From: Gemmatimonadota bacterium
GTDB taxonomy: Bacteria > Gemmatimonadota > Gemmatimonadetes > Gemmatimonadales > GWC2-71-9
DNA length: 64,000 nt
Reading direction: 5' to 3'
NCBI GenBank assembly: GCA_016713435.1
Contig: JADJPD010000018.1
Location: 5,232-69,231 of the forward strand
Position 1 is the first letter of the stretch. Each line of letters opens with the position of its first letter. A program made the position numbers and the translations under genes. The notes beneath the pieces were generated by a model. That model made no database searches. It had not been told where the DNA came from and saw nothing but the letters and a program-made list of their open reading frames with translations. Positions 1 to 48,342 of the stretch are shown here, piece after piece.

Positions 1-2
1 TG

Positions 3-1223
3 GTGCCGGCGTTGAAAGACGAGATCGGCCAGGGCACCGGCCGGCGGGCGCGGCTCCAGTCGGCGCTGGTGGTGGCCCAGGTGGCGCTCTCGCTGGTGAC
101 CCTGGTGGCGGCCGGCCTCTTCCTCCGGAGCCTCGACGGCTACCGCTCCATGGACACCGGCATGCACGGCACCGACCGGGTGCTGCTGGTGAGCACCGAC
201 CTCCGCCTGACAGGGATGGTGGGGGACAGCCTGCAGGTGAGCCTGGTCGAGCGCCTCCTCGAGCGGGTGCGCGCCCTCCCCGGCGTCGAGGCCGCCGCCG
301 TGGCGCGTGCCGTGGTGCTCGGCCCCGGCCCCCTCAGCACCTCGGCCATGACCGTGGACGGCTACACCCCCGCGCCCAACGAGAGCATGCAGGTGAGCCA
401 GAACGTCGTCTCCGGCGACTACTTCCGCACCACGGGCATCGCGGTGCGCGATGGCCGGGACTTCGGGCCCGCCGACCTGGCCGGCGCCGCGCCCGTCGCC
501 ATCGTCAACGAGGCCTTCGTTAACCGCTACCTGGCCGGCCGCGTCGCGCTCGGCGCCCGCATCGACATCTCCGGCACCGGCCCGGTGACCATCGTCGGCG
601 TCGTGGCCACGAGCAAGTACGACGACTACACGGAAAGCCCCAAGCCGGTGGTGTTCCGGCCGTACGCGCCGGGGTCCGCACCGCCGGGCTTCTCGGTGCA
701 CGTCCGGACGGTCGGGGACCCGCTGGCGCTCACCTCCGCCGTGCGCGGGGCGTTCAGCGAGGCGGGGGCCGCGCTGCCGTTCCTCGACCCGCGGGTCATG
801 GCCGAGTACAACACCCTGCCCTACTTCCCGCAGCGGGTCGGCGCCATCATGCTCGCCGCCATCGGGGGCCTCGCGCTGCTGCTCGCGGCCATCGGGATCT
901 ACGGCGTCATGGCCTACACGGTGAGCCGCCGCACGCGCGAGATCGGGGTCCGCATCGCCCTCGGGGCGGCCCCCGGGGACGTCGTCGGCCTCATCCTCGG
1001 GCGCGCCGCCAGCCTGATCGGGCTCGGGCTCCTGCTCGGCGGCACGGCGGCGCTCGGCGTGGGCCAGCTCCTCCAGAGCCAGCTCTACGGCGTGAGCCCC
1101 CGGGATCCGGTGACCTTCGGCGGGATCTTCCTGCTGCTCTCGCTGGTAGGACTCGGCGCCACCTGGTGGCCGGCCCGGCGGGCGGCCCGGGTGGATCCGG
1201 TGGTGGCGCTGCGGCAGAGTTAG
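3..1223 (+). CDS. ADOP/FtsX(MacB)-type permease, C-terminal part (5' end lies outside the window)
   Basis: The ORF is open to the window edge. It has a C-terminal FtsX-like TM bundle with motif RRTREIGVRIALGA and tail ARVDPVVALRQS. Same family as 33737-36348. Confidence 0.85.
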   Translation: MPALKDEIGQGTGRRARLQSALVVAQVALSLVTLVAAGLFLRSLDGYRSMDTGMHGTDRVLLVSTDLRLTGMVGDSLQVSLVERLLERVRALPGVEAAAVARAVVLGPGPLSTSAMTVDGYTPAPNESMQVSQNVVSGDYFRTTGIAVRDGRDFGPADLAGAAPVAIVNEAFVNRYLAGRVALGARIDISGTGPVTIVGVVATSKYDDYTESPKPVVFRPYAPGSAPPGFSVHVRTVGDPLALTSAVRGAFSEAGAALPFLDPRVMAEYNTLPYFPQRVGAIMLAAIGGLALLLAAIGIYGVMAYTVSRRTREIGVRIALGAAPGDVVGLILGRAASLIGLGLLLGGTAALGVGQLLQSQLYGVSPRDPVTFGGIFLLLSLVGLGATWWPARRAARVDPVVALRQS

Positions 1224-1234
1224 GCGCGAGGAGG

Positions 1235-1251
1235 GGCCGGGCGCTCCGGCC
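1235..1251. terminator. short GC hairpin between convergent genes (possible terminator)
   Basis: ggccgg-gcgct-ccggcc gives a 6-bp stem between the stop at 1223 and the stop at 1274. There is no U-run. Confidence 0.2.
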
Positions 1252-1273
1252 TGCGCGGCTGGGCCGCCGCACC

Positions 1274-2317
1274 CTAGCACCCCGGATTCCACACCGCCGG
1301 CTGCGCCGTGAACACCGAGCCGAGTTCCCACACGGTGCCCACCACCAGCCCGCAGTCCGTGACCCCTGACCCGAACGACGCCCGCCACATGCTGCCCGAC
1401 GGGAACGGCAGCCAGGTGATCCGCCCGCTCCTGTCGGCGATGAAGCCGATGGTGGTCTGCGGCCAGGTCGTGGCGGCGCCCCAGTCCGTGCCCACCGCCA
1501 GCGCGCCGCCCGGGCTCACCGCCTCGGCCTGGGACGCCCCGGCCGTCGCGTACCACCCCGCGTGATCCGGCTTGCCAAAGGAGGCCCGCCCCGTCGTGAC
1601 GCCCACCACGCCGAGCCAGCCATCGAGGTCCAGCCCGTCAATGCCGCCGCCGACCACCTGCACCGTCCACCCCGTCGCGCCCCGGCGCCAGAGCACCGTG
1701 TACACGATGCCCTTCAGGTCCTCGGCCGTGCCCAGGATGACTTCCTCGTTGTTGATGGCGCGGGCGGTGGTCCTCCGGCCGCCGGGGAGGGTGGGCAGGA
1801 GGACCAGGCTGCCGGCGGGCGCGTCCCAGGCGAAGGCGCGGTCCCGGCCCCGGCGCAGCACGGTGCCGACGACCATGCCCCGGTCGTTCACGTCCACGGC
1901 CTCTCCGCTGTCGGGGAGCACCACGGGGGTCGCGCCGAAGGAGGTCCAGACGGCGGGCGAGAGGTCCACCCACGCGCAGCAGTTCGGGGAGACCCCGCCG
2001 ACGATGATCCCGCTGTTATTGACGGCCAGCGCCCTGGCGATGCGGCCCGGCCCGCTGGCCATGAAGTGCATCGGCCCCCCCTGGGGCAGCGCGATGGCGC
2101 CGCCGTTGCCCATGCCGACGGCGAGGTTGGCACGGTTGACGTCCGCGAACCAGCCGTCCACGGGGTACACGGCGACGGTGAAGCTGCCGGGCAGCGGGAC
2201 CCGGGCCGCCGCGGGGGGCGGGAGGTCCGGGGTCCCGGGCTCGACGGCGGAGTCGGGGGCACAGGCGGCGCAGAGGGCCAGGAGCGCGAGCAGGGTGGTG
2301 CTCGAGGGGTGGCGCAT
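1274..2317 (-). CDS. secreted/lipoprotein HAF-type extracellular repeat protein
   Basis: Signal peptide with lipobox-like LLALCAAC. Repeated motifs AVNNSGIIVGG, DVNDRGMVVGT and AINNEEVILGT resemble the HAF repeat. Confidence 0.7.
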   Translation of the reverse strand: MRHPSSTTLLALLALCAACAPDSAVEPGTPDLPPPAAARVPLPGSFTVAVYPVDGWFADVNRANLAVGMGNGGAIALPQGGPMHFMASGPGRIARALAVNNSGIIVGGVSPNCCAWVDLSPAVWTSFGATPVVLPDSGEAVDVNDRGMVVGTVLRRGRDRAFAWDAPAGSLVLLPTLPGGRRTTARAINNEEVILGTAEDLKGIVYTVLWRRGATGWTVQVVGGGIDGLDLDGWLGVVGVTTGRASFGKPDHAGWYATAGASQAEAVSPGGALAVGTDWGAATTWPQTTIGFIADRSGRITWLPFPSGSMWRASFGSGVTDCGLVVGTVWELGSVFTAQPAVWNPGC

Positions 2318-2399
2318 GGGTGGCTCGCGGTGGGGGGTCAGGAGAGGGACGCGGCAGGCGGGCCCGGGCTCTCAGACGGGCGCCTCGCGTCGGACTTTG

Positions 2400-2775
2400 G
2401 CCTCAGTCCCCTCCCCCGCCGTCCTCCCTGAGCACCTCCCCGCAGCATCCGCTCCGGATGCTCCAGGAACGCCCGCGTGACCTGGAAGTGCTCCGTCTCC
2501 CGGTACGCCACCTCCCGCGACGGGGACAGGGCCTCCGGCTCGTCGAAGAGGTAGAAGCCGTTCCCGTGGAGCCGGTGGAGCACCAGCGCCAGGAACGACT
2601 CGCCGTGCGACTGCTCGTGGAGCGACCGCCCGCCGCCGGCGTCCGGGTCGTAGGCGTGCCGCGCCTCGGGGTTCTCGAGCACCGTGGCGAGGTTGTAAAA
2701 GCTCTCGGCGCGGAGGAAAAAGCTGTCAGTGGGGGCCGGGGGTGCGGGTGAGCGTCAGGTGCCTGAAGAGCCGCG
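2400..2775 (-). pseudogene. truncated, internally deleted duplicate of the AAA ATPase gene at 9210-9971
   Basis: Near-identical nucleotides to about 9215-9716 in the same orientation. Peptide NPEARHAYDP.AGGGRSLHEQSHGESFLALVLHRL and REVAYRETEHFQVTRAFLEHPERML are retained. Walker A is missing. An in-frame deletion of about 132 nt removes the ATHSP region. Confidence 0.8.
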
Positions 2776-2833
2776 CCAGGCCTCGCGTCGCGTGCCCCCC
2801 AGCTCACCGCCCTCACGTCCACGATCGTCGTGG

Positions 2834-3463
2834 TTACGGCAAACAGCGAGATCGTGGTCTCGGCAGGCCCCGGCAACGATCTGTTCGATGGCACGGGCGA
2901 TCTTGCGGGCCCCTGCCGACGAGGGCTCGATCTCCTGGACGAAGTCGCTGTCCCCCGTGCAGACGCCCGGAGGTCAAGTACCCTCGACCTGGGCGCGGAG
3001 GCGCTTCGCGGACGATCTGGTCGTTGAGCAAGTTCCGCGGCACCTTGGCCAGTCGCGCGCCGTGACCGGGCCTGTCAGCGGGGGTCGTAGATGGTGCAGG
3101 GCAATCAGGCGGTCGACCCGTGGCTTCAGGTCCGCCAATACGCGCCGGTACTTCCCTGAAGTCAGCGGTGATACTGGCCAGCCGATCCAGGACCCTCTGC
3201 TGTGGAAGAGGCACGCTCTTCCAGGATGCCGATGTGCTCCGTGGCATCATTCCCGCCAATGCTGAGGACGCCCACCGAGGTGCCAAGGCGAGATGGCCGA
3301 CCTGAAACCGCAGGTCGGCCATGGTCGCACCGTCCCGGGCGAGAAGATCGACGATCCACGCCTGGCCCAGCGCCCGCTGGAGGCACTCCGTCGTGTCCGG
3401 CTCGGGCGCTGTATACGGGCTATTGTCGAGGATGGAATCGCCGAGGAGCGCTAGCCGCTGCAT
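2834..3463 (-). pseudogene. SGNH/GDSL hydrolase, multiply frameshifted (distal cassette)
   Basis: Block I LALLGDSILDNS is in frame 1, VLSIGGNDA in frame 2, and the C-terminal DFVQEIEPSSAGARKIARAIEQIV in frame 3. The TAA stop lies inside GTTAC at 2834. Confidence 0.6.
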
Positions 3464-3487
3464 CGAAAGGTCGGGAGAGGGTTAGCC

Positions 3488-3612
3488 GCATAACGCCCGC
3501 TCATGAGTAGCGCGGCGCGGCACGATGTGGAGAACTTACCCTGGCACGCCCGGCGTGCCAGCCGGTAGAGACTGGGCGGACGCGCCACGACTATTCCCTT
3601 TTTTTGTTAGGT
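3488..3612 (-). repeat. attC-like site B (one arm degenerate)
   Basis: GCATAAC at 3488 and GTTAGGT at 3606. The interior aligns with site A (taacgcccgc.catga, gcggcgcgg, cgcgcc.cgact). The L-prime arm is replaced by a T-run. Confidence 0.4.
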
Positions 3613-3986
3613 TGCCGTTGGCATGGCCGGGTGCCGCGGCGCCCGCGGTTGCTCAGGCAGCGACGCCGAGGACGGTCAGTACCGGATGGTTCCGTCGGGC
3701 AGCCGCTGAAAGTGATAGAATGGCTTGACTCAAGCGGAGTCGGTAACGAGGACCAACAGTCCACGCTGAGATGGAGAGTTCCATCGTGATCCTCCTTGTG
3801 GCAGTCGACGACCCACTCGGCTGTACCGTGAGGAAGAGCGCGGGTGAGCGGCGCTTGGTGCTCAAGGGGGCGGCGCAGATCCTCAACCGGCCACCGCTCA
3901 ACCTCCGCTCCGACCTGGTTGGTGAGCTGCCGGAGAAGCGCGTAGTTAGCGGTTCGCTGCAGAAACAGGCGCTGGAGGACTCTCAC
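3591..3986 (-). CDS. hypothetical cassette protein
   Basis: ORF sits between attC-like sites C and B. The 3' end runs into site B. No recognisable domain. Confidence 0.35.
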   Translation of the reverse strand: MRVLQRLFLQRTANYALLRQLTNQVGAEVERWPVEDLRRPLEHQAPLTRALPHGTAEWVVDCHKEDHDGTLHLSVDCWSSLPTPLESSHSITFSGCPTEPSGTDRPRRRCLSNRGRRGTRPCQRQPNKKRE

Positions 3987-4065
3987 GAGGCCTACGGTTG
4001 CCGACTAGTGGGGCGTGTCACGAAGCGCACGCGGTTGGCCGGGCCCTCAGGAGTACGAGCGTGGG

Positions 4066-4191
4066 GCCTAACGACCCCGCATAAGCTGCGGCCCGAGGCT
4101 CGTTCGCGCAAGCGAACGGGCCGACGAGCGCGGGTGCTTGGAGCTGCGCCAACCGATGGCCGAGGACGCCAGCTTCATGCGGTGGTTAGGC
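4066..4191 (-). repeat. attC-like site C (best example)
   Basis: GCCTAAC-GACCCCGCATAAGCTG...CAGCTTCATGCGGTG-GTTAGGC. The outer 7-mers are perfectly complementary. The inner arms pair with bulged bases. There is a central hairpin tcgttcgc-gcaa-gcgaacg. Confidence 0.65.
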
Positions 4192-4210
4192 CGCGAGCGG
4201 GCGGCGCACG

Positions 4211-4669
4211 TCATGACGGGTACCGAAGGTCCCGGCGCGCCCGCTCACCGGCACGAACTCCGCGCTCATAGGCCGCGAGTGCGGTCGCTCTCCTACGTAC
4301 GGCACGATCGTTGTGTCCAAGGCGCTCCCGAACATCATCCCAGAAGGCTGCAGAGCCGATGGCTGCCATGGCGCGCGCCATGGCGGTGAACTCGCGTGTA
4401 ATCCGGCGATGAAGGTAATCCACTGCGGCTGTCTCGAGACGTGCCTGCTGTTCGCGGGACAAAGCCGCTCGAGCCAGTCTGCGCCAGATGGCCTCCTTCC
4501 GATAGCCGGACCTGAAGTACCTGGGATCCTCCGCGAGGAAGGCTATGGCCGGATCGATGGCAGGATCGTTTTGGCGCACTTGCACCTCGACGGCCCACAT
4601 ATCGGCCCATCGAATGGCTGTGTCCAACTCGGCTTTCTGAGCGGCGGCGGAAGGGCGATAGTGGCGCAT
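4211..4669 (-). CDS. hypothetical cassette protein
   Basis: Intact 152-aa ORF. The stop is 20 nt from site C and the start is 28 nt from site E. Helical and Arg-rich, with no recognised domain. Confidence 0.5.
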   Translation of the reverse strand: MRHYRPSAAAQKAELDTAIRWADMWAVEVQVRQNDPAIDPAIAFLAEDPRYFRSGYRKEAIWRRLARAALSREQQARLETAAVDYLHRRITREFTAMARAMAAIGSAAFWDDVRERLGHNDRAVRRRATALAAYERGVRAGERARRDLRYPS

Positions 4670-4696
4670 CGAGGTGGCAAGAGCTATTGCGAGCCG

Positions 4697-4836
4697 GTCT
4701 AACGGTCTTCAGCGTCAGCTGCGGGGCATCGTGCCCCGTGTGAGATAACGTACGTTTCTTTGAACCACACCGCGACTTCACGCACCACGGGCGGTCGCTC
4801 CCTTACCGCCCCGGCTGCTGCACGCCCACGTTGGCC
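4697..4836 (-). repeat. attC-like site E
   Basis: GTCTAAC at 4697 and GTTGGCC at 4830. The arms ggtcttcagcgtcagctgcgg and ccggctgctgcacgcccac are partly complementary. It shares an internal core (gtgtgagataacgtacgtt) with site F. Confidence 0.45.
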
Positions 4837-4845
4837 CGCAACCTT

Positions 4846-5324
4846 TCACACCAGGCCAGGCCCGCGACCGTTCTTGACGACCCGTCCCGCGTTCAACGGC
4901 GAGCCGGCTGCCTCCCGGCAGGAAGATCGTCCACGACGCTGCCCGTCTGCGGTCATGAAAGTGGTGAGCCACCGCTTCCCGGTCAGGCCCACCACGAACC
5001 CGGCAGCCGACCGGTCAGCGCAATCTCTTCGATCTGGAGATCCTGCAGGCGCTGGATCCCGAGGTCCAGCTTTCGCTCCGCGCTCCAGCTCCCGAAGCTG
5101 ATGGCGCGGAGACGCTCGACGGGCCAACTCCACGCGACCATGATGCTGGCCTGGCCGCGGGGATGCGGAGCAGCTGGAGCAGGAGTACGCCGAAGGCGTG
5201 ACAACTCCAGGAAGACGGCGGAGCCGTATCCGCGCCAAGGATACGAGACCGGGAGACCGGTCAGGGGTTCTACCAGCCGTGCGAAGGTCGTCGCATCGAT
5301 GCTGGGGCTGCGGGCTGATGGCAC
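4846..5324 (-). pseudogene. hypothetical cassette protein with apparent frameshift
   Basis: ORF 4983..5324 (IDATTFARLVEPLTG...WSWPVERLRAISFGSWS...IEEIALTGRLP) appears to continue in another frame (GLTGKRWLTTFMTADGQ) to a stop at 4846, 10 nt from site E. Confidence 0.4.
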
Positions 5325-5346
5325 TAGCTCGAGGTTCGGAGTTACG

Positions 5347-5472
5347 GGCTAACGCCCGCGCATGACCTGCAGGGCCGCGGCGCGGTCTGGGAACTGTACC
5401 GCCCGACGTCTGGCTGTGCCGGCTTGAGACAACCGATGGCCGCGCCCCGACTGGTCCATGCGCTGGTTACCT
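5347..5472 (-). repeat. attC-like site A
   Basis: GGCTAAC-GCCCGCGCATGACC...GGTCCATGCGCTG-GTTACCT. The arms are complementary with bulges. The TAA stop of the upstream ORF lies in GTTAC. Confidence 0.55.
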
Positions 5473-5928
5473 GGCATGTCGGGGCGGATATGGAGGAATC
5501 CAGAACTGCCACCACTTCTTGTTCTTGTACGCCTCTGCCATGGCCCGGAGGCTCTCCTCGCTCTCGCGAAGGTCGGCGCGCAGCTTGACGAGGAAGTCGG
5601 CGAAAGTGGCCGCATAGGGGTGGGTGTGTTTCGATTCAACCTCCAATACCAGGACGGCCCCGCTTGGATGGGAACAGTCCATCACGAACAATTCTTCGCC
5701 GCCATCACCGCCGATGATCAGGTGGTGTGGAGGCCATGGGCGACCATTGAGGACTGTGGCTCGTATCTGGCGATTTGTCTTCGAGGACGAGCCTCGGGTT
5801 ACTCACGAGCCAGAGATCCGTGGCATAGGAGTCTGGCGGAAAGGGAAGGCGAGCATCGCCTGCCGGTAGGGCTCCGGCAGCACGAGGTCCAGCTCTCGCT
5901 CCATGTGCTCCAAGTCGGCAGGAGTCAT
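5467..5928 (-). pseudogene. SMI1/KNR4-like protein interrupted by one in-frame TGA (5803-5805)
   Basis: N-terminal MTPADLEHMERELDLVLPEPYRQAML and C-terminal HLIIGGDGGEELFVMDCSHPSGAVLVLEVE...FADFLVKL are in the same frame, separated only by a TGA. Confidence 0.55.
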
Positions 5929-5951
5929 AAGGATCGGCAAGAGGGCATGGC

Positions 5952-6047
5952 AGCTAACGTGCGAGTTCAGCCGCCCCCGAGGAGCGTAGCGAGGAGGGAA
6001 CCGGCAAGCAACGCGTGCCCGCGGTCGGCTGCAACGCCGGGTTAGGC
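5952..6047 (-). repeat. attC-like site D
   Basis: AGCTAAC-GTGCGAGTTCAGCCG...CGGCTGCAACGCCGG-GTTAGGC. The next ORF start (5928) is 24 nt beyond the low-coordinate end. Confidence 0.55.
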
Positions 6048-6202
6048 CCCTCAGCCGTCCACACTGACATGCTTCACGAGGGCATCTCCCGCAATGCCAC
6101 GGCCCCTCGGACCAGGAAGATTTCCACTGCCCAGCGCACAATCGCCCATCTCATCATAGCATACCCTATTGCATTGCCTAGACCGAGGCATAGAGCAGTT
6201 CA

Positions 6203-6640
6203 CTAGAGCCGTCCACCCTTGACAAGCCAGAGCGTGATCATCGTAGCGACCCACATAGCGACAACCACTGCGATGACCGTTGTTCCCTGGGATGCCTCGA
6301 AGAGTCGGTCCTCAATGTTCCCGGCAACGGCAATCTCGGGGTTTCGGGCAAAGTATGTGACGATGAATGAATCCCCAACTTGGATATCTTCGAATCGCGG
6401 GTTTCCCGCGCCTGCGTAACCCTTCCCTCGATACGTTTTGCCGCCCGCTTCAAACTCGTAGTCGATATACCGGTGGTCCGACGGTCGCTTCCCGAGCACT
6501 CGCGCCGCTGCGGTGCGAGGCTCACGGGCGATGGTCTCATACGTAGCACGCGGCGAGCGGCTTGAGAAGATCCAAGAGATGATCACGGCACAGAGTGCCC
6601 ATACAGTGAATCTCCGGAAGCCAGCCATGAGCATCTGCAT
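6203..6640 (-). CDS. DUF3592-like membrane protein (cassette)
   Basis: Internal ATG at 6640. N-terminal TM, beta-rich core HRYIDYEFEAGGKTYRGKGY...VGDSFIVTYF, then a C-terminal TM. Confidence 0.6.
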   Translation of the reverse strand: MQMLMAGFRRFTVWALCAVIISWIFSSRSPRATYETIAREPRTAAARVLGKRPSDHRYIDYEFEAGGKTYRGKGYAGAGNPRFEDIQVGDSFIVTYFARNPEIAVAGNIEDRLFEASQGTTVIAVVVAMWVATMITLWLVKGGRL

Positions 6641-6654
6641 TGAGCCGGACCCCT

Positions 6655-6770
6655 CGGGGAGGAGTGCCCAGTGTGAGATAACGTACGTTCTTTGTGAACA
6701 CTCCGCGACCCGAGGCGCCACGGACGGTTGCACATCACGCGCGCCGACTGCTGCACGCCATAGGTGGATG
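6655..6770 (-). repeat. partial/degenerate attC-like site F
   Basis: Aligns with the interior and high-coordinate arm of site E (gtgtgagataacgtacgttctttg, ccgactgctgcacgcc). GTT is mutated to GGT and the low-coordinate arm is missing. Confidence 0.3.
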
Positions 6771-6896
6771 GCAGCGAGCCGGGATACAATGCTGCATCCC
6801 GAGCCATCGGCGCGGGCAGTTGAGCTGCCCCAGTCTTGATGGACAGCCGGTCAGGGTGCTGGCTCGGGGGCCTGGCCGAGCACCCGGCCCTGGCAC

Positions 6897-7389
6897 TCAA
6901 CTCACCGAGCCTCCGGTGCTGCCGGGGCGGTTCACAGTGCGCACGCAGAAGAGTGCCCACATGAAACCACTCGCCATGGTCCCGAATACTAGCGCGCTCA
7001 TCCAACGATTTCGCACCGCATCCCTAAGAGCCTCCATCGGGTCGTCACTCGTGCTCAGCTCAGGTCGGGAGGCACTATATCGAATCTTGACGGTATCTCC
7101 AGGCACCAGCTGCTCGTAAACGGCGTCCGGTCGCGAACGACACTTCCCGACTGGAATACCGTTGGCCTCCTACCACATAGGCGTATTCGATCGTCCGGTG
7201 TTCATGAGGTATGGTGCGGACGACAATGCCAATGCCCTCTACCCCATCCTTCACGATGGTTTCTTGTGGCAACTCCCTTATTCCAAGCAATGCCCGCAGC
7301 ACAAACACCGCAATGCACCAGAAGGGCGCCAATACACGCTTGCACATGACGCACCCCGCGAAAACCTGGATCAAGGAGAGAAGACCCAC
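6897..7389 (-). pseudogene. DUF3592-like membrane protein, frameshifted (proximal cassette)
   Basis: ORF 7075..7389 (TM, HRTIEYAYVVGGQRYSS) continues in ORF 6897..7106 (PGDTVKIRYSASRPE...TM). The frame change is near 7075-7140. Confidence 0.5.
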
Positions 7390-7526
7390 CGCAACACGCG
7401 GTCCAATAAGATCATTCCGAAGCTAGCGATCTCCTGGCACTCAAGTATCGGAAGCGATAGGAGCCATCGGACGCGACACGCCCGCCAGCTGCAGGCCACC
7501 GGCCCTGGCCGGCTCGCACCGCGGGG

Positions 7527-8120
7527 CTAGTTCCCCGCCCCCTGCAGCGCCCCATTCGCCAGCGCCTGCTCCAGGCCCGACAGGGCCCCCACCCCCTGCC
7601 CCTGCGCCACGATCCGCCCCGTGGCGTCGCGGATCACCACCAGCGGCCGGGTCCAGGTGTCGCCCACCACGATGCCGAGCGGGGAGAGCGCGGCGTCGAG
7701 GCCGCCGGAGCCCCAGTGGCGGACGTGGATGGGCTGGAAGGGCGCCTGGTGCTTCGTCAGGAAGGGGACGATCTCCGCGACATCCTCGTCGGGATCCGTG
7801 GAGTACGCCTGGAAGTCGATGCCCCGCGGCCCGTAGAACCGGGCCAGCGAGCTCAGCTGCGGGAACATCCGCTGGGTGATGGGGCAGCGCGGTCCGTACA
7901 GCACCACGATGGAAGGGCGCCCCATGGGCCGCTGGATGCGCTGGGCGAGCTCGCGCACGGAGATCTGGGTCACGCCCGGCACTTCCGCCGGCCCTCCGTC
8001 CTCAGCGACCTGGGCCTGCGCGGCCACCGGCGCACCCCGCGTGACGAGCGCGGACCGGACCCGGCCCACCAGCACCAGGGCCACCAGCCCAGCCAGGACG
8101 ATGGCCAGCACGATTCGCAT
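7527..8120 (-). CDS. membrane-anchored thioredoxin-fold (TlpA-like) protein with a single Cys in place of CxxC
   Basis: N-terminal anchor IVLAIVLAGLVALVLVG. Thioredoxin-like core IVVLYGPRCPITQ...PLVVIRDATGRIV. Confidence 0.65.
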   Translation of the reverse strand: MRIVLAIVLAGLVALVLVGRVRSALVTRGAPVAAQAQVAEDGGPAEVPGVTQISVRELAQRIQRPMGRPSIVVLYGPRCPITQRMFPQLSSLARFYGPRGIDFQAYSTDPDEDVAEIVPFLTKHQAPFQPIHVRHWGSGGLDAALSPLGIVVGDTWTRPLVVIRDATGRIVAQGQGVGALSGLEQALANGALQGAGN

Positions 8121-9213
8121 CGGGCCTCGCGACGGAACGGAGGAGGGTTATGGAGGGTGCCGCGGCACCGCACAGGCGTGCCTGACTCGGCGCCCTGCTC
8201 CAAGCTACATCCGTCAGGCTCGCGCCCCTCTCGGGCGTGCTGATTCCGGGAGGAGGGATTCGGGTTTGCGGGCCGACACTCGGCGGGATACCGGCAGGCA
8301 TCACCACCAGGACCCTCGCGTGGCCGGGGTCAGTGATACCTCCTGGGCTGCCGCCCGGTCCCGGGACCAGCCAGTACCCATCGCGGTTATAGCCGCTGTA
8401 CCAGAAGAGCAGTTCGGACACCCCGTCGCCGTCGTAGTCGCCCGCATCCACCAGCGTGAGGCCGACGCCGAGGAACTCGACCTCGGTGCCGACCCGGAAC
8501 CAGTGCGCGCTCCACGCCTCGTCGAAGTCGGGACCATCGCAGGTGGCCCGCTCAGGGGCGGCACGCACCCCCACGAGGCGCTCCCCCGTCACTGCGCGGT
8601 AGGCCTGGACCACGCGCAGGTCGGCCGCCGTGTAGCGGGCGATCGTGTCCACCGTTCCGTCGCCGCCCTCGCACGTAAGCACCACCCGGCTCGCGAACTC
8701 GGGCATCACCCGCGCCAGGACCTCTGGCGGCGGCTGGTCTCGCTTCCAGCGGGCAGGGTCCCGGTAGTTGGGCCGGGAGACCACCACGACGGGCCGGCGG
8801 GCCGGCGCGTCGCACCAGCCGCCGAAGAGCCCGGCGCGGTCGGGGATGGTGTACCGCGCCGAGTCGGGCGCGGTGCCGAGGAAGCGCTCCCTGGCCTCCC
8901 GGAGGAAGAAGCCGGTGTCGGTCGGGGCGGGCGACGTGAACGTCCCGAGCCGCCGGCCATCGAACGCCACCGTCCAGGTCACGCCCTCCGGCCGCACCGG
9001 GAGTTCAGGCAGGGGGTCGCTGAGGGACTGCCAGCCGCTGGCCGTGCGCGCGAACAGCACCCGGAGCGACGGCGTGGGGCCCAGGTCGCACTGGGGCTCC
9101 TCGAGGACGCCGACGAGGATGGTCGGCGTGAGCCCCGGGGTGGACTGGGGCCACGCGGGGAGCGCGGCCAGCAGCCCGGCGAAGGGGAGGCACGTGAGGC
9201 GGCCCAGCATCAC
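8002..9213 (-). CDS. secreted hypothetical protein with FG-GAP/VCBS-like segment
   Basis: Signal-like N-terminus MLGRLTCLPFAGLLAALPAWPQ. Motif DAGDYDGDGVSELLFWYSGYNRDGYW. The low-complexity 3' tail overlaps 7527-8120 by 119 nt, so the true stop is uncertain. Confidence 0.55.
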   Translation of the reverse strand: MMLGRLTCLPFAGLLAALPAWPQSTPGLTPTILVGVLEEPQCDLGPTPSLRVLFARTASGWQSLSDPLPELPVRPEGVTWTVAFDGRRLGTFTSPAPTDTGFFLREARERFLGTAPDSARYTIPDRAGLFGGWCDAPARRPVVVVSRPNYRDPARWKRDQPPPEVLARVMPEFASRVVLTCEGGDGTVDTIARYTAADLRVVQAYRAVTGERLVGVRAAPERATCDGPDFDEAWSAHWFRVGTEVEFLGVGLTLVDAGDYDGDGVSELLFWYSGYNRDGYWLVPGPGGSPGGITDPGHARVLVVMPAGIPPSVGPQTRIPPPGISTPERGASLTDVAWSRAPSQARLCGAAAPSITLLRSVARPDANRAGHRPGWAGGPGAGGPGPVRARHAGCAGGRAGPGR

Positions 9214-9971
9214 GCGCCTTCCTGGCCGTCGTCGTCACGGAGCAGCTCCCGCAGCATCCGCTCCGGATGCTCCAGGAACGCCCGCGTGACCTGGAAGTGC
9301 TCCGTCTCCCGGTACGCCACCTCCCGCGGCGGGTGCTCCCCGAACTCGTAGATCGTGGCGCCGGGGAAGCCGAGGAGGATCGGGGAGTGGGTGGCCACGA
9401 TGAACTGGGAGTTCCGCTGCACCAGCCGGTGCATGGCGGCCATGAGCGCCAGCTGCCGCGATGGGGACAGGGCCGCCTCGGGCTCGTCGAAGAGGTAGAA
9501 GCCGTTCCCGCGGAGCCGGTGGAGCACCAGCGCCAGGAACGACTCGCCGTGCGACTGCTCGTGGAGCGACCGCCCGCCGCCGGCCTCCGGGTCGTAGGCG
9601 TGCCGCGCCTCGGGGTTCTCGAGCACCGTGGCGAGGTTGTAGAAGCTCTCGGCGCGGAGGAAGAAGCTGTCGGTGGGGGCCGGGCGGGTGCGGGTGAGCG
9701 TCAGGTGCTTGAAGAGCTCGGAGTGCGACCGCCGGGTGGTGAACCGCACGTGCTTGGAGCCGCCCTCCGCATTGAGCCCGAACGCGGCGGCCAGCGCCTC
9801 CAGCAGGGTGGACTTCCCCGAGCCGTTCTCGCCGACGAAGAAGGTGACGGCGGTGGGGAACGCCAGCTGCTCCAGGTGCCGGATGGCGGGGATCGCGTAG
9901 GGATACCCGCCCTGCCGTTCGGCGGGGAGGAGCTTGAGGCGGAGGTCGGTGATGAAGCGGGGGTGGGGCAC
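9210..9971 (-). CDS. AAA/ABC-like ATPase (COG3910-type predicted ATPase)
   Basis: Walker A FVGENGSGKSTLLEAL, Walker B FYLFDEPEAALSP, H-loop ATHSP. Its stop overlaps the start of 8002-9213. Confidence 0.8.
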   Translation of the reverse strand: MPHPRFITDLRLKLLPAERQGGYPYAIPAIRHLEQLAFPTAVTFFVGENGSGKSTLLEALAAAFGLNAEGGSKHVRFTTRRSHSELFKHLTLTRTRPAPTDSFFLRAESFYNLATVLENPEARHAYDPEAGGGRSLHEQSHGESFLALVLHRLRGNGFYLFDEPEAALSPSRQLALMAAMHRLVQRNSQFIVATHSPILLGFPGATIYEFGEHPPREVAYRETEHFQVTRAFLEHPERMLRELLRDDDGQEGA

Positions 9972-10076
9972 AGGGATCGGGGGGGGCTCGGGGTGACGGG
10001 TGAAGGATACAACCGGGCTGACCCGCCGTCAGGCACCAGCGGGTGCATCAGCCCCCGGGACGGCGGGCCGCCGTGT

Positions 10077-10475
10077 TCAGCCCTCGACCCACACCTGCTC
10101 GAACCCCGCCTCCTCGAGCACCCGCACGATGATTCCGACGATCGGGTCCGTGGCGGCCTCCTTGTTCCGGCCCCGGATCCGGTCCCACAGCGTGCGATGC
10201 CGCTCGAGCATGACCTGCCACTCGCCGTAGTCCGGTCGTGCGGGGTCCTCCGCGGAATTGCCGCCGACGCACATCAGGTAGGTGGCGTCGCCCAGCGTCG
10301 CCTGGTTGGCCCAGCCGAAGTCCTCCATGCAGATCACGTCGGCCTCCACGCCGCGGTCGCCCAGCGCCTGCACCAGCCAGGTGGAGAAGTCCTCCCCGAA
10401 GCAGCACGGATTGATGAAGTCCGGGCCGGGGCGGGAGAGGTTGAAGCGGGCGGTGTGGCAGTGGATGTGAACCAT
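10077..10475 (-). CDS. hypothetical cytoplasmic protein
   Basis: Coherent 132-aa ORF from MVHIHCHTARFNLSRPGPDFINP. No recognised domain. Confidence 0.5.
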   Translation of the reverse strand: MVHIHCHTARFNLSRPGPDFINPCCFGEDFSTWLVQALGDRGVEADVICMEDFGWANQATLGDATYLMCVGGNSAEDPARPDYGEWQVMLERHRTLWDRIRGRNKEAATDPIVGIIVRVLEEAGFEQVWVEG

Positions 10476-16767: not shown

Positions 16768-18788
16768 GGCTCCCTCCTCTCGGCCCAGGGCGGCCCGCAC
16801 GGCGGCCGCCACGTTGATGACCTTCAGCGCCACCACCCGCCCGCCCACCGTGTCGTTGCAGACCACCGCCGTGGCGATGAGCAGGTCTCGGACCTCCTTC
16901 GCCGTGAGGTCGGGGTTGGCCCGCAACACCATGGCCGAGGCCCCCGCCGCCAGGGCGGTCGCGGCGGACGTGCCCGGAACTCGCGGGTGTAGCCACCCTT
17001 GAGCGCCGTGGTGAACATGGGAATCGCGGGGCCACGACGTCCACTTCCGGCCCGTAGTTGAGGACCAGCCTCGGCGCGCGCCAGGCGGCCGTCCCGATCC
17101 GCGCCCGCCACCGCCACCACGAAATCGAGGCAGGCGGGAAGCGCACTCGCCGCCGTCGCTGCCGGCTGCCGCCACCACCACGCATCCCCGCCCCCGGCCC
17201 GTGCGCGTCGCACGCTGGAGGGCGCGCCGCACCCGCTCCGAGTCGCCCGCGGACCAGCTCAGGCTCAGCACATCGGCGCCCGCCGCCACGGCCGCCTCGA
17301 TCCCGCTGGCCAGTCGCACGTTGGTGGTCACGATGTCGCCCCCGAAAGGCGCGGTAGTTCACCCGCACCGCCATCAGCCGGCTCCCCGCCCCCACGCCTT
17401 TCATGCCGTCCCCGGCAGGCCGTGCGCCTACGAGCCCGGCGCAACTGGTCCCGTGCCCATCGTGGGCCAGCGGGCAGGAGGTCAGCTCGGTCCGGAACAG
17501 GTCCGCCGCGCCCCACGGCGTCCCGCAGGTCGGGATGCGCCCGGTCAACGCCATCGTCCAGTACCGCCACGGTGACCCGGTCCAGCGCCCGGTCGCCGAT
17601 GAGCTCCCACGCCTCCATCGCCCCGATGATCCGGTAGGCGAGCGCGCCCGCCTCCGCGTCGCCTCCCAGCGCGGGCGCGTAGGGCATCGCCGCGCCCTTC
17701 ACCTGCACCAGGTCCGGCTCGGCAAACTCGACCTCCGCCAACGCGCCCAGTGTGGTGGCCGCCTTGAAGGGATCCTCGGCGGAGTCGAGTCGGACGGTAT
17801 AGTCCGACTCCTTCACCTCCAGCACCGTGCCCCGGAGGTGCTCGAGCGCGTCCTCCACCGACTTCGGCAGGGCGTCCTCCGTCTCGGCCAGCGACAGCAC
17901 CACCTTGTCCGTGGCGAACTGCCAGGCACCGCCCCCCGCCTCGAACACCGGCTGCACCCGCGTCACCTTGGGGCTCGCCTCGAGTCGGGTCACCAGGGCC
18001 TTGTAGTCCGCCAGCGTCGTGTTGGCGGTCTTGAAGAGGTAGTACCCGTCGCTGGGCAGCAGCCCGGTGTATACCAGCCCGAACTCCCCGGCCAGCTCCT
18101 CCGGGTTCAACGGCGACGTCCGGAACCGCACCGCAATCCGCCCGCGATCCACCCGGAGGCGCACCTCCCGCACCCCGTTGTTGAACGTGACCTCCTCACC
18201 CAGGCGGCTGCTGTGCCCACCTTCCCCGACTGGCGGCTCGTCCTCCCCCTGGAGCTCCCGCTCACGCGCTCGGGCACGGTCGGAGAGCCAGCGCTTGCCA
18301 AGGTCGTTGACGGTCTCCAGCACCACGTCGATCCAGAGACCGGTGAAGAAGCCGAGGAACAGCACCCACGGCGCACTCCCGGTCGACGGGAATCCGGCTT
18401 CGAGACAGACGAAGGCAACCAGGGCGACATACAGGGCCACCAGCAGGCGGCCCGCATACGTGCGCAGCACGTCCCGCGTGCGCCCACGTTGCCTGACCGC
18501 AGGAAGGCCGCCGTGGGCGTGTTGATGCTGTACGCCACAGGTCAGGCTGCCGATGTACGAGGCCACGATCAGCAGCGAGGGCACCGCCAGTCCCGCGAGC
18601 CCAAGGGGGATTTGGTCCTGGCCGCTGGTCATGTACGCCTGGGCCAGCTTCCACGACGAGTAGGTCCAGACCAGGGCCACGAGGAGGGCGTAGACGGCGG
18701 GGTGATACCGTCGCCAGGGGAGGGCCTGCTTGGGCCAGGGGATCTCGGTGGTGGTGAGGTTGAGGAGTGCCAGGAAGATCCCGCGCAT
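16768..18788 (-). pseudogene. membrane-anchored S8 subtilisin-like serine protease, multiple apparent frameshifts
   Basis: N-terminal TM region. Asp motif VAVLDDGVD (about 17544-17570). His motif HDGHGTSCAG (about 17450) is in a second frame. NYGPEVDVVAP and GTSAATALAAG (about 16970) are in further frames. No stop precedes 16767. Confidence 0.65.
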
Positions 18789-39448: not shown

Positions 39449-39877
39449 ATGCGCAGCGCCGCCCTCGTTGCAGCCAGCATCCTGCTCCTCGCCGCCTGTT
39501 CGGGCGACGGCGCCACCGCGCCCACCCCCGGCCTCGTCATGGCCGCCCGCCTCCGCTCCGCGGCGGTGGACTCCGGCGGCACCGTGGTGGTGAGCCTCAC
39601 CGCCAGCAATCCGGGGTCCCGCAGCGTGCGGGTCACGGCGCCCTCGAGCTGCGTGGCCACCGCCCGGATCGTGGACTCGCGCGGCGCCACGGTGGCCACG
39701 CCCACCATCCTCTGCCTCCCGGCCGTCACCACCTATCACTTCGCCCCCGGCGACACCAGCCAGTGGGACATCGGTCTCGACGTGCGGAGCCCGCCCGGGT
39801 CCTACGTGGTGGTGGCCTCGCTCGTGATCGGGACGGCGGTCAAGTACCAGGACACGCTCGCCCTCGCCGTGCAGTGA
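39449..39877 (+). CDS. lipoprotein, paralog 1 of a tandem pair
   Basis: Lipobox LLLAAC. Motifs VDSGGTVVVSLTASNPGSRSVRVTAPSSCVA and TSQWDIGLDVRSPPGSY. Confidence 0.6.
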   Translation: MRSAALVAASILLLAACSGDGATAPTPGLVMAARLRSAAVDSGGTVVVSLTASNPGSRSVRVTAPSSCVATARIVDSRGATVATPTILCLPAVTTYHFAPGDTSQWDIGLDVRSPPGSYVVVASLVIGTAVKYQDTLALAVQ

Positions 39878-40023: not shown

Positions 40024-40444
40024 ATGCGCCGGATGATCGGCCTCGTCGCCGGCCTCCTGCTTGCCGCCGCCTGCCACAAGGCCGCCCCCGCGGCCCCGCC
40101 CCTGGCCCTCGCCGTCACGCTCCAGCGGCCCACCGTGGACTCGGGGGGCACCGTGGTGGTGACCTTCACCGCCACCAATCCCGGCACCGAGGTCATCCGG
40201 CTCTCCGCGCCGAGCAGCTGCGTGGCCATGGCCCGGATCGAGACGGCCACGGGCGAGGTGGTGGCGACGCCCACCATGCTCTGCTCCGAGAAGGTCACCA
40301 AGTTCCAGTTCCCGGCGGGCACCACCAGCCAGTGGGACGTGGGCCTCGACGTCCGGAGCCCCCGGCAGCTATCGCGTGGTGGGCCTCCTCAAGCTCGGCG
40401 ACGTGGCCGTCCTCCAGGACACCATGCCGCTCACGGTCCGTTAG
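40024..40444 (+). CDS. lipoprotein, paralog 2, with a 1-nt frameshift near 40362
   Basis: Lipobox LLLAAAC. Motifs VDSGGTVVVTFTATNPGTEVIRLSAPSSCVA and TSQWDVGLDVRSP. The expected PGSYRVVGLLKLGDVAVLQDTMPLTVR then follows in the +1 frame after a C/G run. Confidence 0.55.
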
Positions 40445-41568: not shown

Positions 41569-42270
41569 ATGCGCCGGGTGCTGCTGCTGCCGGGGCTCGA
41601 CGGGACGGGCGAGCTCTTTGCGCCATTCGTGGAGCGGGCGCCGGCGGGGGTGACGGTGGAGGTGGCGCGGCTGCCGGAGCGGCTCGTCGAGTACCCTGCC
41701 CTCGCCGACTGGGCGGTGGAGACGCTCCGGCTGGATGGCGAGACGGTGCTGGTGGCGGAGTCGTTCGCGGGGCCGCTCGCCATCCTGGTCGCGGCGCGGG
41801 CGCGGGTCGCGGCGGTGGTGCTGGTGAACACCTGGATCGTGTCGCCCTACGCGCCGACGTGGAACTGGCTGATCCGGCCGTGGGCCTTCCGCGTGCCGCC
41901 CCCGAAGCGCGTCCTCCGGGCCCGCATGCTCGGCGACCGGGCGAGCGACGACCTGGTCACCCGCGCGCGCGACGTCGTGGCCTCGGTGCCCCCCGCCGTG
42001 ATGGCGGGCCGCCTCCGCGCCATGATGCGCGCCGACGTGCGGCGGGAGGCCGCCGAGGTGTCGCGCGGGGGGACGCCGCTGGTGGTGCTCCACGGCGACG
42101 GCGACGGGCTGGTGCCCCGGCGGAGCGTCGCGCAGGTGGAGCAGGCCGTTCCCGTGAAGCCGACGGTGATCCACCTCGCGGGCCCGCACCTGCTGCTGCA
42201 GGTGGAGCCCGAGGCGAGCTGGCAGGCGCTCGCTCCGTGGCTGCGACCGACTTCAGGCGCACACCCGTAG
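41569..42270 (+). CDS. alpha/beta-fold hydrolase
   Basis: VLLLPGLDGTGELF and the nucleophile-elbow-like LVAESFAG. C-terminal GPHLLL. Confidence 0.65.
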   Translation: MRRVLLLPGLDGTGELFAPFVERAPAGVTVEVARLPERLVEYPALADWAVETLRLDGETVLVAESFAGPLAILVAARARVAAVVLVNTWIVSPYAPTWNWLIRPWAFRVPPPKRVLRARMLGDRASDDLVTRARDVVASVPPAVMAGRLRAMMRADVRREAAEVSRGGTPLVVLHGDGDGLVPRRSVAQVEQAVPVKPTVIHLAGPHLLLQVEPEASWQALAPWLRPTSGAHP

Positions 42271-42355
42271 CGGCGGAGCTACGCTCCGCCGCCTCGATCC
42301 CACCATCGTGCTGGATCCTGAAGATAGAGACGGCGGAGCGTAGCTCCGCCGCTAC
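42267..42355. repeat. perfect 25-bp inverted repeat with 39-nt spacer
   Basis: GTAGCGGCGGAGCTACGCTCCGCCG (42267-42291) and its exact reverse complement (42331-42355). Each arm is itself partly self-complementary. Confidence 0.85.
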
Positions 42356-42363
42356 GGGTCAAC

Positions 42364-42849
42364 GTGACGAGAGGAATCATGCGACAGCCCCTGCTGCTCA
42401 TCAGCGTCCTCACCCTCGCCGCGGCCGCCGCCGCGCAGGCGCAGGCGCCCGCCTTCAAGAACCCGCCCACCCTCCCGCCGAGCCCGGGCTGGTCCCAGGT
42501 GGCGGAGGTGCCGCCGGGCAGCAAGCTGGTGTTCATCTCGGGCCAGGTGGCGATGGACCAGTCGGGCCGGATCGTGGCGCTGAGCAACTTCCGCGGCCAG
42601 GCAGAGCAGGTGTTCCAGAACCTGGACCGTGCCCTCCGCGCCTCGGGCGCCACCTTCAAGGACGTGGTGAAGCTCACGTACTTCGTGCTCGACGTAACCC
42701 AGCTCCCCACCCTGCGCGAGGTGCGCGACAACTACGTCAACCGCGCCGCGCCGCCCGCGAGCACCCTGGTGCAGGTCTCGGCGCTCTTCACGCCGGGGAT
42801 CCTGCTGGAGGTGGAGGCCGTGGCGGTGGTGCCGGTGGCAGCGCCGTGA
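42364..42849 (+). CDS. RidA/YjgF-family protein with signal peptide
   Basis: LVFISGQVAMDQSGRIV...AEQVFQNLDRALRASGATFKDVVKLTYFV...LLEVEAVA. Confidence 0.75.
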   Translation: MTRGIMRQPLLLISVLTLAAAAAAQAQAPAFKNPPTLPPSPGWSQVAEVPPGSKLVFISGQVAMDQSGRIVALSNFRGQAEQVFQNLDRALRASGATFKDVVKLTYFVLDVTQLPTLREVRDNYVNRAAPPASTLVQVSALFTPGILLEVEAVAVVPVAAP

Positions 42850-46662: not shown

Positions 46663-46673
46663 GCTGATCTTCG

Positions 46674-46925
46674 CCGGGGCGCGGGGCCCCGCGGGGGGGG
46701 GCGCGCCCGTGCGGGGGGGGGGGGGGGGGGGGGCCCGGGGGCGGCCCCCGGGGGGGGGGCGCGGGGGGGGCCCCCGCCGGGGGGGGGGGGGCCGGGGGGG
46801 GGGCCGGGGCGGGGCGCCGCCCCCCGGCGGGGGGGGGCCGGGCCCCGCCGCCCCGGCCGGGGGGGCCGGGGGGGGCGGGGGGGGGCGGGGGGGGGGGGGG
46901 GGGGGGGGGGGGGCCGGGGGGCGGC
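46674..46925. repeat. G-rich (plus strand) low-complexity tract of about 250 bp
   Basis: Almost only G, with scattered C. It contains G-runs of more than 20 nt. It lies between the DUF1810 stop and the end of the GGDEF domain. Confidence 0.9.
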
Positions 46926-48342
46926 TCACCGCCACCCGGTTCCGCCCCGCCTGCTTGGCCTCGTACAGCGCGCGGTCCGCCCGCTCGGCCAGCTCGGCCA
47001 GGTTGGTGGTGCCGGCGGCGCACACGGCCACGCCGACGCTTGCCCCCACCTGCACCACGCGGTCCCCGCCCAGGTCGATGGGCCGGGCGCACGCCGCCAC
47101 CACCTTGGCCGCCAGCACCTCGGCCCCCTTCGGGTCGCCGAGCCCCGTCTGCACGATGGCAAACTCGTCGCCGCCGAGCCGGACCACGAGGTCGTCCCTG
47201 CGGACCAGCGCCGTCAGGCGCCGCGCCACCTGGCGGAGCACCTCGTCGCCCGCGGCGTGGCCGTAGGTGTCGTTCACGGGCTTGAAGGCGTCGAGGTCAA
47301 TGTAGAGGAACGCCCAGCCATCCTTGACGCCGCGGCGACCCACCTGCCCCGCATCGAAGAGCGCCTTGAGGCGGCGGCGGTTCGGGAGCGCGGTGAGCGC
47401 GTCGGTCTCGGCGGCGTGCTGCAGGTCCTCGAGGCGGTTCCGCTCGGTGAGGTCCTGCAGGATGCCGATCATCACGCTCCCCTCCCCCACCTCGCGCGCG
47501 CGCACCTCCCCCTTGAGCTCGGCCTGGAAGGTCTCGCCGCTCTTCCGGATGCCGCGAAGGCGCAGCGCAAAGCGGGCGGCCGGCCCGTGACCGGTGAGGG
47601 CGCCGCGCACCCGGGTGCGGTCCCGCGGGCTGATGAGCGCCAGGAAGGCGTCCAGGGTCACCGGCGCCTCGGCGCGGCTCCGGAGCTGGAAGAGGGGGCC
47701 CAGCATGTCGTCGCCCCGGAAGGCGTCCTCGGCCGGGTCGTACTCCCAGCCCGCGACGGTGGCGATGCGCTTCACGTGGTCGAAGCGGCGCTCGAGGTCC
47801 CGCAGCCGTTCCAGCTCGCGCCGGCCCTGGAGCAACGACCAGAGCCGCCGGCCGACCAGGTCCACGGTGCGGATATCCTCGTCCTCGTACGGCTCGGGCT
47901 TGTTGCCGACGCCGATCAGCAGGCGGATGTGCCCCTCGACCTCGATGGGCACGCCGAGGTGGCGGTGCAGCGGGTTGTGGCCCTCGGGCAGCCCACGGCG
48001 GCCCACGGCGGTGGCGAAATCGTTGTGCACCACCGGGCAGCGCTGCCGCACCGTGTCGGCCCAGTTGCCGGCGCTCCGGACGGGGTAGTGGCGGTCGTAG
48101 GTGGCGGTGCACTGCGCCAGGGTGTCGTGCGACCAGGTGCCGAGCTCGATGGTCTCCTCGTCCTCGTTCAGGAAGTGGAGATAGGCGATCTGGCTGCCGG
48201 TGGCGCGCTGGGCGACGTCCACGCCCACCTGGATGATCTGGCGCTCGGTGGACTCCGGCCCCACGCCCGCGAGGGCGGCGAGCGCCTCGAGCTGGCGGGT
48301 CGAGTAGTCGTGCGAGGCCGGGTAATTCCCGAGCATGGACAT
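46926..48342 (-). CDS. GAF-PAS-GGDEF diguanylate cyclase (3' end undefined)
   Basis: ATG at 48342. DALTALPNRR...IDLDAFKPVNDTYGHAAGDEVL...RLGGDEFAIV...RADRALYEAKQAGRNRVAV. The frame then runs into the C-tract (poly-Pro) with no stop until 46216. Confidence 0.75.

Follow-up and report, generated by a model that had tools for sequence, protein, structure and literature searches.

A block at approximately positions 2772–7526 of the 64 000-nucleotide stretch of a Gemmatimonadales chromosome analysed here (contig JADJPD010000018.1; the whole stretch is called the window below) is best described as a cluster of attC sites lacking an integron integrase (CALIN), as defined by Cury et al. (2016; PMC4889954). 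We place the probability of this reading at about 0.9. The CALIN has a length of ~4.75 kb and holds about seven captured cassettes, five of them with a recognisable attC site, and several of the captured genes are broken. The original prediction, made from the sequence alone, had proposed a CALIN-like array without an integrase, and this proposal is supported by five matches to a covariance model of attC sites (R1), by the lack of a recombinase in the window and by the linkage of the same attC family to an integron integrase in an environmental locus (L065).

Four sites in the block (4066–4191, 4697–4836, 5347–5472 and 5952–6047) share one exact geometry when read on the minus strand, which is the sense of the small open reading frames (ORFs) of the block. 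The first half consists of a 7-nucleotide (nt) box ending in AAC, 5 nt and an 8-nt box with an extra base in its fourth place (position 16), and the second half, beyond a variable loop, of a perfectly complementary 7-nt box, 5–9 nt (6, 7, 7 and 9 in the four sites) and GTT. No other place in the 64 kb, on either strand, fits this geometry; in first-order shuffles the expected number is 0.06 for the block and 0.62 for the full window. The outer boxes R'' (..AAC) and R' (GTT..) and the paired inner boxes L'' and L' are present in all four, and a fifth site is recognised through R1. The sites are clustered on one strand with starts 575–650 nt apart. The proposed RYYYAAC and GTTRRRY bounds are found at both ends of 4066–4191, and the other sites do not follow the strict consensus at both ends; bounds of the form ..AAC and GTT.. 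occur at four sites. A strict RYYYAAC…GTTRRRY pair elsewhere in the window, at 18105–18186, is attributed to chance: it lies inside a gene and receives no support from R1.

The model R1 was built from 33 mutually diverse metagenomic sites and contains zero window sequences. A covariance-model search had been suggested as a check on the prediction; run over the whole window with filters off, R1 gave five significant matches, all on the minus strand and all within the block, with E values from 1.5e-21 to 2.3e-06. The best match at any other locus in the window scores 14.9 bits (E 0.035), and nothing was found at E<0.01 in the remaining 59 kb. Rfam yielded nothing for the window, whether at gathering or at permissive thresholds. 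S3 (4066–4191, minus strand; cassette c3) and S5 (5347–5472, minus strand) are intact sites of 126 nt scoring 79.6 bits (E 1.5e-21) and 74.9 bits (E 3.7e-20), respectively. Members of the family in metagenomic arrays score 45–95 bits under R1, and S3 and S5 are typical of them. S4 (4697–4836, minus strand; 140 nt, 34.1 bits, E 6.3e-08) represents a divergent subtype and S6 (5952–6047, minus strand; 96 nt, 28.9 bits, E 2.3e-06) a short divergent subtype, both with an intact stem. S2 (3488–3612, minus strand; 125 nt, 31.4 bits, E 4e-07) is decayed: its stem cannot pair because the 5' inner arm has been mutated to an A-run, and its alignment to R1 contains many non-canonical pairs, while the loop and 3' arm resemble family members of the type found at locus L005.

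The family itself is abundant in the environment. A metagenome contig scan with a 21-nt degenerate pattern of the 3' arm matched at least 120 contigs, many of which carry 2–14 matches on a single strand, 600–1500 nt apart, and so have the appearance of cassette arrays; the largest array seen in one fetched stretch has at least 14 sites. Among the matches listed, 300 sites in 110 loci show the exact geometry, mostly with a length of ~126 nt, and 289 of these 300 have G as the extra base when read on the sense strand, i.e. C on the bottom strand. RNAalifold folds the 33-site alignment into a hairpin of 22 pairs, 12 of which show compensatory changes, with columns 8–9 and 16 unpaired (16 always) and columns 10–15 paired. 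On the bottom strand, which is the plus strand here, the pattern reads as an unpaired T, six paired nucleotides and an unpaired C (T-N6-C), with the T present in ~26 of the 33 representatives. Most attC sites carry G as their second extrahelical base and attC-dfrA1 carries C; with IntI1, IntI2, IntI3 and SonIntIA, excision of engineered T-N6-C sites equalled or exceeded that of T-N6-G sites (PMC3053210). The C at the second position is a trait of the present family and not a defect. None of the 11 published taxon-specific attC models is a counterpart to the family (PMC8352920), and a model of the R1 type could help to place environmental cassettes in the T-N6-C lineage.

The family sites are as long (~126 nt) and as homogeneous as the repeats (VCRs) of the Vibrio cholerae superintegron and likewise form large one-strand arrays. 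The register is presumably also the same, with AAC, 5 nt and the extra base at position 16. The family departs from VCR arrays in having C rather than the more common G as the second extrahelical base; moreover, the host here belongs to the Gemmatimonadales and not to the Gammaproteobacteria, and the window copy lacks an integrase and is decaying. In the class 1 integron of a Salmonella plasmid (L127), R1 aligns over their full length to attC-aadA1 (32.9 bits) and attC-dfrA1 (17.6 bits), in both cases with the expected coordinates and strand, and has no other match at E<0.01 in that 12 kb stretch. The aadA1 attC junction used as a query matched plasmids at 100%. C is the second extrahelical base in both attC-dfrA1 and the present family (PMC3053210). 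Class 1 sites, in contrast to the window array, measure 60–95 nt and are located on mobile elements beside intI1, and whereas the class 1 integron L127 carries the resistance cassettes dfrA1 and aadA1, Pfam and PADLOC gave no match to a resistance family among the window cassettes.

The link to an integrase is provided by L065 (Ga0163146_10029191, 1–4551), a complete environmental integron. Its integrase matches the full NCBIfam model TIGR02249 with 382.5 bits (cut-off 265), is 50% identical to IntI1 and is encoded on the plus strand, divergent from four cassettes with attC sites of the same family on the minus strand; an attI-like gap of ~270 nt precedes the first cassette. This divergent layout fixes the top strand of the attC family. 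The integrase ORF may have an N-terminal extension of ~115 amino acids (aa) before the region that matches TIGR02249. The cassettes of L065 encode MOSC and DUF2306 proteins, and their attC sites are 60 to ~100 nt in length.

These results bear on the reading that the hairpins are host repeats placed between small genes, similar to repetitive extragenic palindromes (REP), bacterial interspersed mosaic elements (BIME) or terminators, with no relation to integrons. Some features would fit it: the elements are GC-rich, intergenic, imperfect hairpins that follow ORFs, and S2 ends with a T-run on the plus strand. Dispersal through the genome had been named as the sign of such an element, but beyond the block R1 has no match at E<0.01 in the window, and with default filters it has none at E<=0.001 in the loci of two relatives (L125 and L001). 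Furthermore, the family occurs in one-strand arrays with variable genes and beside an integron integrase, the model also detects the class 1 sites and the block differs from the host in composition. Within the reach of the window, the REP-like reading is refuted, and the chance that it is nevertheless correct is negligible.

Searches with tblastn using IntI1 and the L065 integrase found no credible tyrosine recombinase or remnant of one in the 64 kb, in agreement with the original prediction; the best match (E 0.005) lies inside an amylase gene. Thus, intI is missing from the 56 kb on the promoter-proximal side of the array and from the 2.7 kb on the other side. No attI was found at the right border, where 137 nt dissimilar to every fetched locus lie ahead of the first cassette, with the stop codon of the host-like thioredoxin-like gene beyond them. 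The array does not have the make-up of a complete integron (intI, attI and the promoter Pc next to the first cassette). Both features that define a CALIN are present, namely a cluster of two or more attC sites spaced by less than 4 kb and no integron integrase within 4 kb. An integrase elsewhere in the genome would leave the array a CALIN by definition, although it would then not be inert. An alternative is a complete and active integron of which the block forms one arm, with the integrase outside the window after a rearrangement and the cassettes still shuffled in trans. In its favour, four sites retain an intact structure, around half of CALINs share their genome with an IntI gene (PMC4889954), the window covers 64 kb of a source contig of ~109 kb and the duplicated ATPase gene described below indicates that the region has been rearranged. 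The distances over which intI is missing speak against an active arm, as do the pseudogenes among the seven cassettes (at least three) and two ruined attC sites, which suggest long neglect and not turnover. We regard an active arm as unlikely, while giving it more weight than any other alternative to a stranded CALIN.

The composition of the block sets it apart from the host. Its GC content is 63.7% versus 72.4% for the remainder of the window, which agrees with the earlier remark that it is richer in A/T than its flanks; along 2776–7525 the values are 58–68%, with 72–75% on both sides. The value for the block equals the median (63.7%) of 122 loci from the same attC family, and the integrase gene of L065 has a GC content of 65.5%. 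At another locus, L036 (Ga0184615_10000542, 1–10110), at least ten attC sites of the family adjoin a gene of 71–75% GC for a TolC-like protein. This is a second array of ~64% GC inside high-GC DNA, which indicates that cassettes of this pool retain their composition when lodged in high-GC chromosomes. The view that an integron array would be unusual in this genomic background does not hold, since integrons of Gemmatimonadota have been reported previously (PMC8618304).

A sharp GC step at both borders could also arise from an assembly chimera in which a cassette-array contig from another organism was wrongly merged with a Gemmatimonadales contig. Assembly is difficult for arrays whose attC sites are nearly identical (PMC9024848), and the attC family includes a thioredoxin-like cassette related to the gene that heads the array. 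The left junction, on the other hand, abuts a diverged (94.5% identical), internally deleted and 5'-truncated copy of a host gene, which is a biological product and not a k-mer join, and with an identity of only 67% the window thioredoxin-like gene and the cassette version have no long k-mers in common. L036 also combines an array of the family with adjoining DNA of 71–75% GC. A chimera is thus very improbable.

The borders of the CALIN were defined by comparison with L125, a relative's locus with 85–90% nucleotide identity to the window. L125 contains, in order, the thioredoxin-like gene, 53 nt, an AAA_21 ATPase gene and a homologue of the window gene at 1274–2371, with no attC; with the flanking genes adjacent and no cassettes between them, it represents the empty site. 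On the right, the array begins directly past the stop of the thioredoxin-like gene (7527), and homology to L125 stops exactly at the stop codon. On the left, the distal boundary is formed by a truncated copy of the AAA_21 ATPase gene (2416–2771, minus strand), which is 5'-truncated, internally deleted and decayed. It is 94.5% identical to 9447–9717 and 93.6% identical to 9226–9333, two parts of the intact AAA_21 ATPase gene (9210–9971) that precedes the thioredoxin-like gene. The truncated copy is also collinear with the ATPase gene and the next gene of L125. The two window copies form a direct repeat, and L125 has a single copy. The three pairwise identities yield a divergence since the duplication of ~5% for the truncated copy and ~0.4% for the intact one, an asymmetry that is expected for a pseudogene. 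The left junction (2771/2772) appears to lie in the middle of an attC site and not at the GTT crossover, and is therefore ascribed to illegitimate recombination or deletion, not to an integrase. No single-step rearrangement that accounts for both ATPase copies could be derived.

The attC interrupted at this junction may survive as a 5' stump (2772–2839, minus strand), which consists of CCGTAAC and 61 nt followed directly by the truncated ATPase gene; to judge from this motif and its position, it would be the remnant of the last attC of the array. At the opposite end, a spacer of 137 nt (7390–7526) between the thioredoxin-like stop and cassette c7 has no recognisable attC or attI. A further relic, S7 (~6655–6781, minus strand), is homologous to S4: self-BLAST aligns 4731–4826 with 6664–6759 at 79.6% identity, pairing the loop and L'' box of S4 with S7. 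In S7 the AAC has changed to ACC, and ~18–22 nt covering L' and R' are deleted. S4 and S7 also share homology over the first ~25 nt of the cassettes next to them (4670–4696; the leaders of c3 and c6), the genes of which are unrelated. R1 gave no match when run alone, with filters off, on 2772–2850, 6655–6800 or 7380–7530, and short-word BLAST of these three segments and of S4 and S6 against all fetched loci found nothing. The seven palindromes originally counted in the block consequently reduce to the five sites, one relic (~6640–6780) and one possible 5' stump (2776–2838), with nothing attC-like at 7389–7525.

The cassette c3 (4211–4669, minus strand) is an intact ORF of 152 aa with no assigned function. 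Only two homologues were found in a large protein collection (75% and 62% identity; L003 and L004), both on short metagenome contigs, where they lie between elements with arms almost identical to those of 4066–4191. In both, the ATG is located 27–28 nt past GTTAGRC, the upstream neighbours and attC types differ from those in the window and similarity to the window starts at the GTTAG of the upstream attC. A unit that occurs in different contexts with homology starting from the GTT crossover is a mobile gene cassette, and c3 is therefore identified as one. Variation in cassette content, which had been proposed as a check on the prediction, is accordingly found: L125 has no cassettes, and elsewhere c3 stands between attC sites with other neighbours. 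Non-synonymous differences between c3 and its two homologues are 0.17–0.34, whereas synonymous differences are 0.72–0.81, near saturation, which indicates purifying selection on c3. L003 (Ga0153915_10751425, 1–1129) opens with the 3' end of a c3-like gene and has a full copy further on; each is followed by an attC, with differing loops, which looks like two adjacent copies of one cassette.

The thioredoxin-like gene (7527–8120, minus strand) at the head of the array has a host-like GC content at third codon positions (GC3) of 0.94 and encodes a protein 83% identical to that of L125, the gene of which is also host-like in GC3 (0.94). A homologue with 67% identity in L126 (ENA ERZ27286469 k141_2673085, 1–1301) is carried as a cassette, flanked by attC sites of this family and with a cassette-like GC3 of 0.71. 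It has an S3-type attC upstream (S3 is 90.8% identical to an attC of this locus), and another attC starts from its last codons. The versions of the window, L125 and L126 all end in AAC-TAG, where R'' sits in L126. A contig scan with the thioredoxin-like protein returned only a 41%-identical locus from a Gemmatimonadales metagenome-assembled genome (MAG) and one irrelevant match. These comparisons fit both a cassette that was domesticated long ago and a host gene that was taken up into a cassette. An additional ORF (8002–9213; 364–403 aa) with host-like GC3 and no family match separates the intact ATPase gene from the thioredoxin-like gene; it shares 118 nt with the longer version of the thioredoxin-like ORF, and L125 lacks a counterpart of it.

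The array could have grown in place without attI: the thioredoxin-like gene would be a domesticated former cassette, and its attC (now the 137-nt spacer) would have served as the landing site for later cassettes through attC × attC recombination by an integrase acting in trans. The cassette status of the homologue in L126, the common AAC-TAG ending exactly where R'' sits there and the start of the array immediately past the thioredoxin-like stop would be explained by such a course. The spacer, however, has no model match, L125 has the same gene without an attC and with an intact ATPase gene downstream, the codon composition is fully host-like and the opposite direction, from host gene to cassette, is equally possible. 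Growth in place is unlikely. A broader version would combine it with the attC family being a very abundant integron lineage with T-N6-C sites of ~126 nt that is present in at least 120 soil and sediment contigs, has no taxon-specific model (PMC8352920) and may be native to the Gemmatimonadota, the thioredoxin-like gene being a domesticated cassette whose attC seeded the array without attI. We consider this combination similarly unlikely; if it were true, the locus would show how cassettes become chromosomal genes and how CALINs arise.

The interpretation of the block as a stranded CALIN suggests the following mechanism. Each cassette is a promoterless ORF followed by an attC site, the bottom strand of which (the plus strand here), when single-stranded, would fold into a hairpin with paired R and L boxes and the unpaired T-N6-C bases. 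This hairpin would be the substrate of an integron integrase, with cleavage in the GTT/AAC box, and such an enzyme probably assembled the cassettes from a pool of ~64% GC that is common to many soil and sediment arrays. With no integrase in cis, the array is presumably inert unless IntI is supplied in trans. S3 to S6 are still structurally intact, and c3, c4 and c5 may be excisable in principle. The remainder is decaying, with one attC stem ruined, one 3' arm lost and at least three of the seven cassettes pseudogenised. The distal end would have formed by illegitimate deletion or rearrangement and not by site-specific recombination.

Several points weigh against the CALIN interpretation or limit it. 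The attC calls are those of R1 as built here. S2, S4 and S6 score only 29–34 bits, below the 45–95 bits of the family; because attC-aadA1 obtains 32.9 bits under R1, they nevertheless score like a functional textbook attC. The integrase search spans 64 kb of a contig of ~109 kb, and an integrase elsewhere is possible. The right border has neither attI nor attC from which the array could have been seeded. Finally, the sequence is probably metagenome-assembled, and the two junctions are those of the assembly.

Compared with the CALINs described previously (PMC4889954), nothing essential differs. The five detectable sites correspond to the average CALIN size (~5–6), the cassettes have unknown or accessory functions and not antibiotic resistance, and no intI pseudogene lies nearby, as in 95% of CALINs. 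What has been preserved here is history: the empty site, a truncation in the middle of an attC together with a truncated host gene, and several pseudogenised cassettes. The locus is one more well documented CALIN among the thousands known and is an illustration rather than a discovery. It does combine, in one place, an empty site, foreign composition, a recurring cassette under selection, graded decay and an illegitimate border, and it supports the view of CALINs as degraded or stranded arrays.

The remaining cassettes are all on the minus strand. The most distal, c1 (2834–3463), is a GDSL/SGNH hydrolase pseudogene with at least two frame changes in a three-frame translation; the composite, which spans the frame changes, matches PF13472 with E 5e-07 and 30.8 bits, slightly under the cut-off of 32.9 bits. 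The cassette c2 (3613–4065) is represented by an ORF at 3591–3986 that runs into S2; its coding status is doubtful and it has no Pfam or PADLOC match. In c4 (4846–5324) a 113-aa ORF (4983–5324) stops short of S4 and a second frame continues to 4846, so that c4 may be frameshifted; it has no family match in Pfam or PADLOC. In c5 (5467–5928) an SMI1/KNR4 (SUKH-1) gene is interrupted by an in-frame stop codon (5803–5805), and its read-through translation matches PF09346 across this stop with 38.6 bits (cut-off 25.4). An apparently intact DUF3592 membrane protein is encoded by c6 (6203–6640; PF12158, E 1.5e-04, 22.8 bits, under the cut-off of 25.3 bits), and its DUF3592 paralogue in c7 (6897–7389) is frameshifted near 7117: c6 aligns to the c7 region in two frames, and the c7 composite reaches 27.6 bits with PF12158. 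Judged from their disrupted reading frames, c1, c5 and c7 are pseudogenes, i.e. at least three of the seven. PADLOC found zero matches among the cassette proteins and gave a generic ATPase similarity for the neighbouring AAA_21 protein only.

The spacing of genes and sites largely follows the description given in the original prediction. At the four junctions that it named, the next ORF starts a regular 22–27 nt past the repeat, and the stop codons at 5467 and 2834 do lie in a TAAC box, the former being the stop of c5 in the R'' box of S5. A palindrome within 10–30 nt of the stop is not found for the ORFs that end at 4983 (147 nt before S4) and 6203 (155 nt).

Elsewhere in the window, a GH97 glycosidase has its best named relatives in Gemmatimonadales MAGs (75–81% identity), and an ADOP permease is also encoded. 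A palindrome of 97 nt (42263–42359), the ~30-nt arms of which are themselves palindromic, overlaps the start of an ORF at 42328–42849; the attC model matches it weakly, at the level of chance, on each of the two strands (E 0.14). A direct repeat of ~72% identity is formed by 39525–39835 and 40087–40403, ~560 nt apart, and a separate internal tandem repeat is located at 46672–46939 in the gene of a large GGDEF protein.

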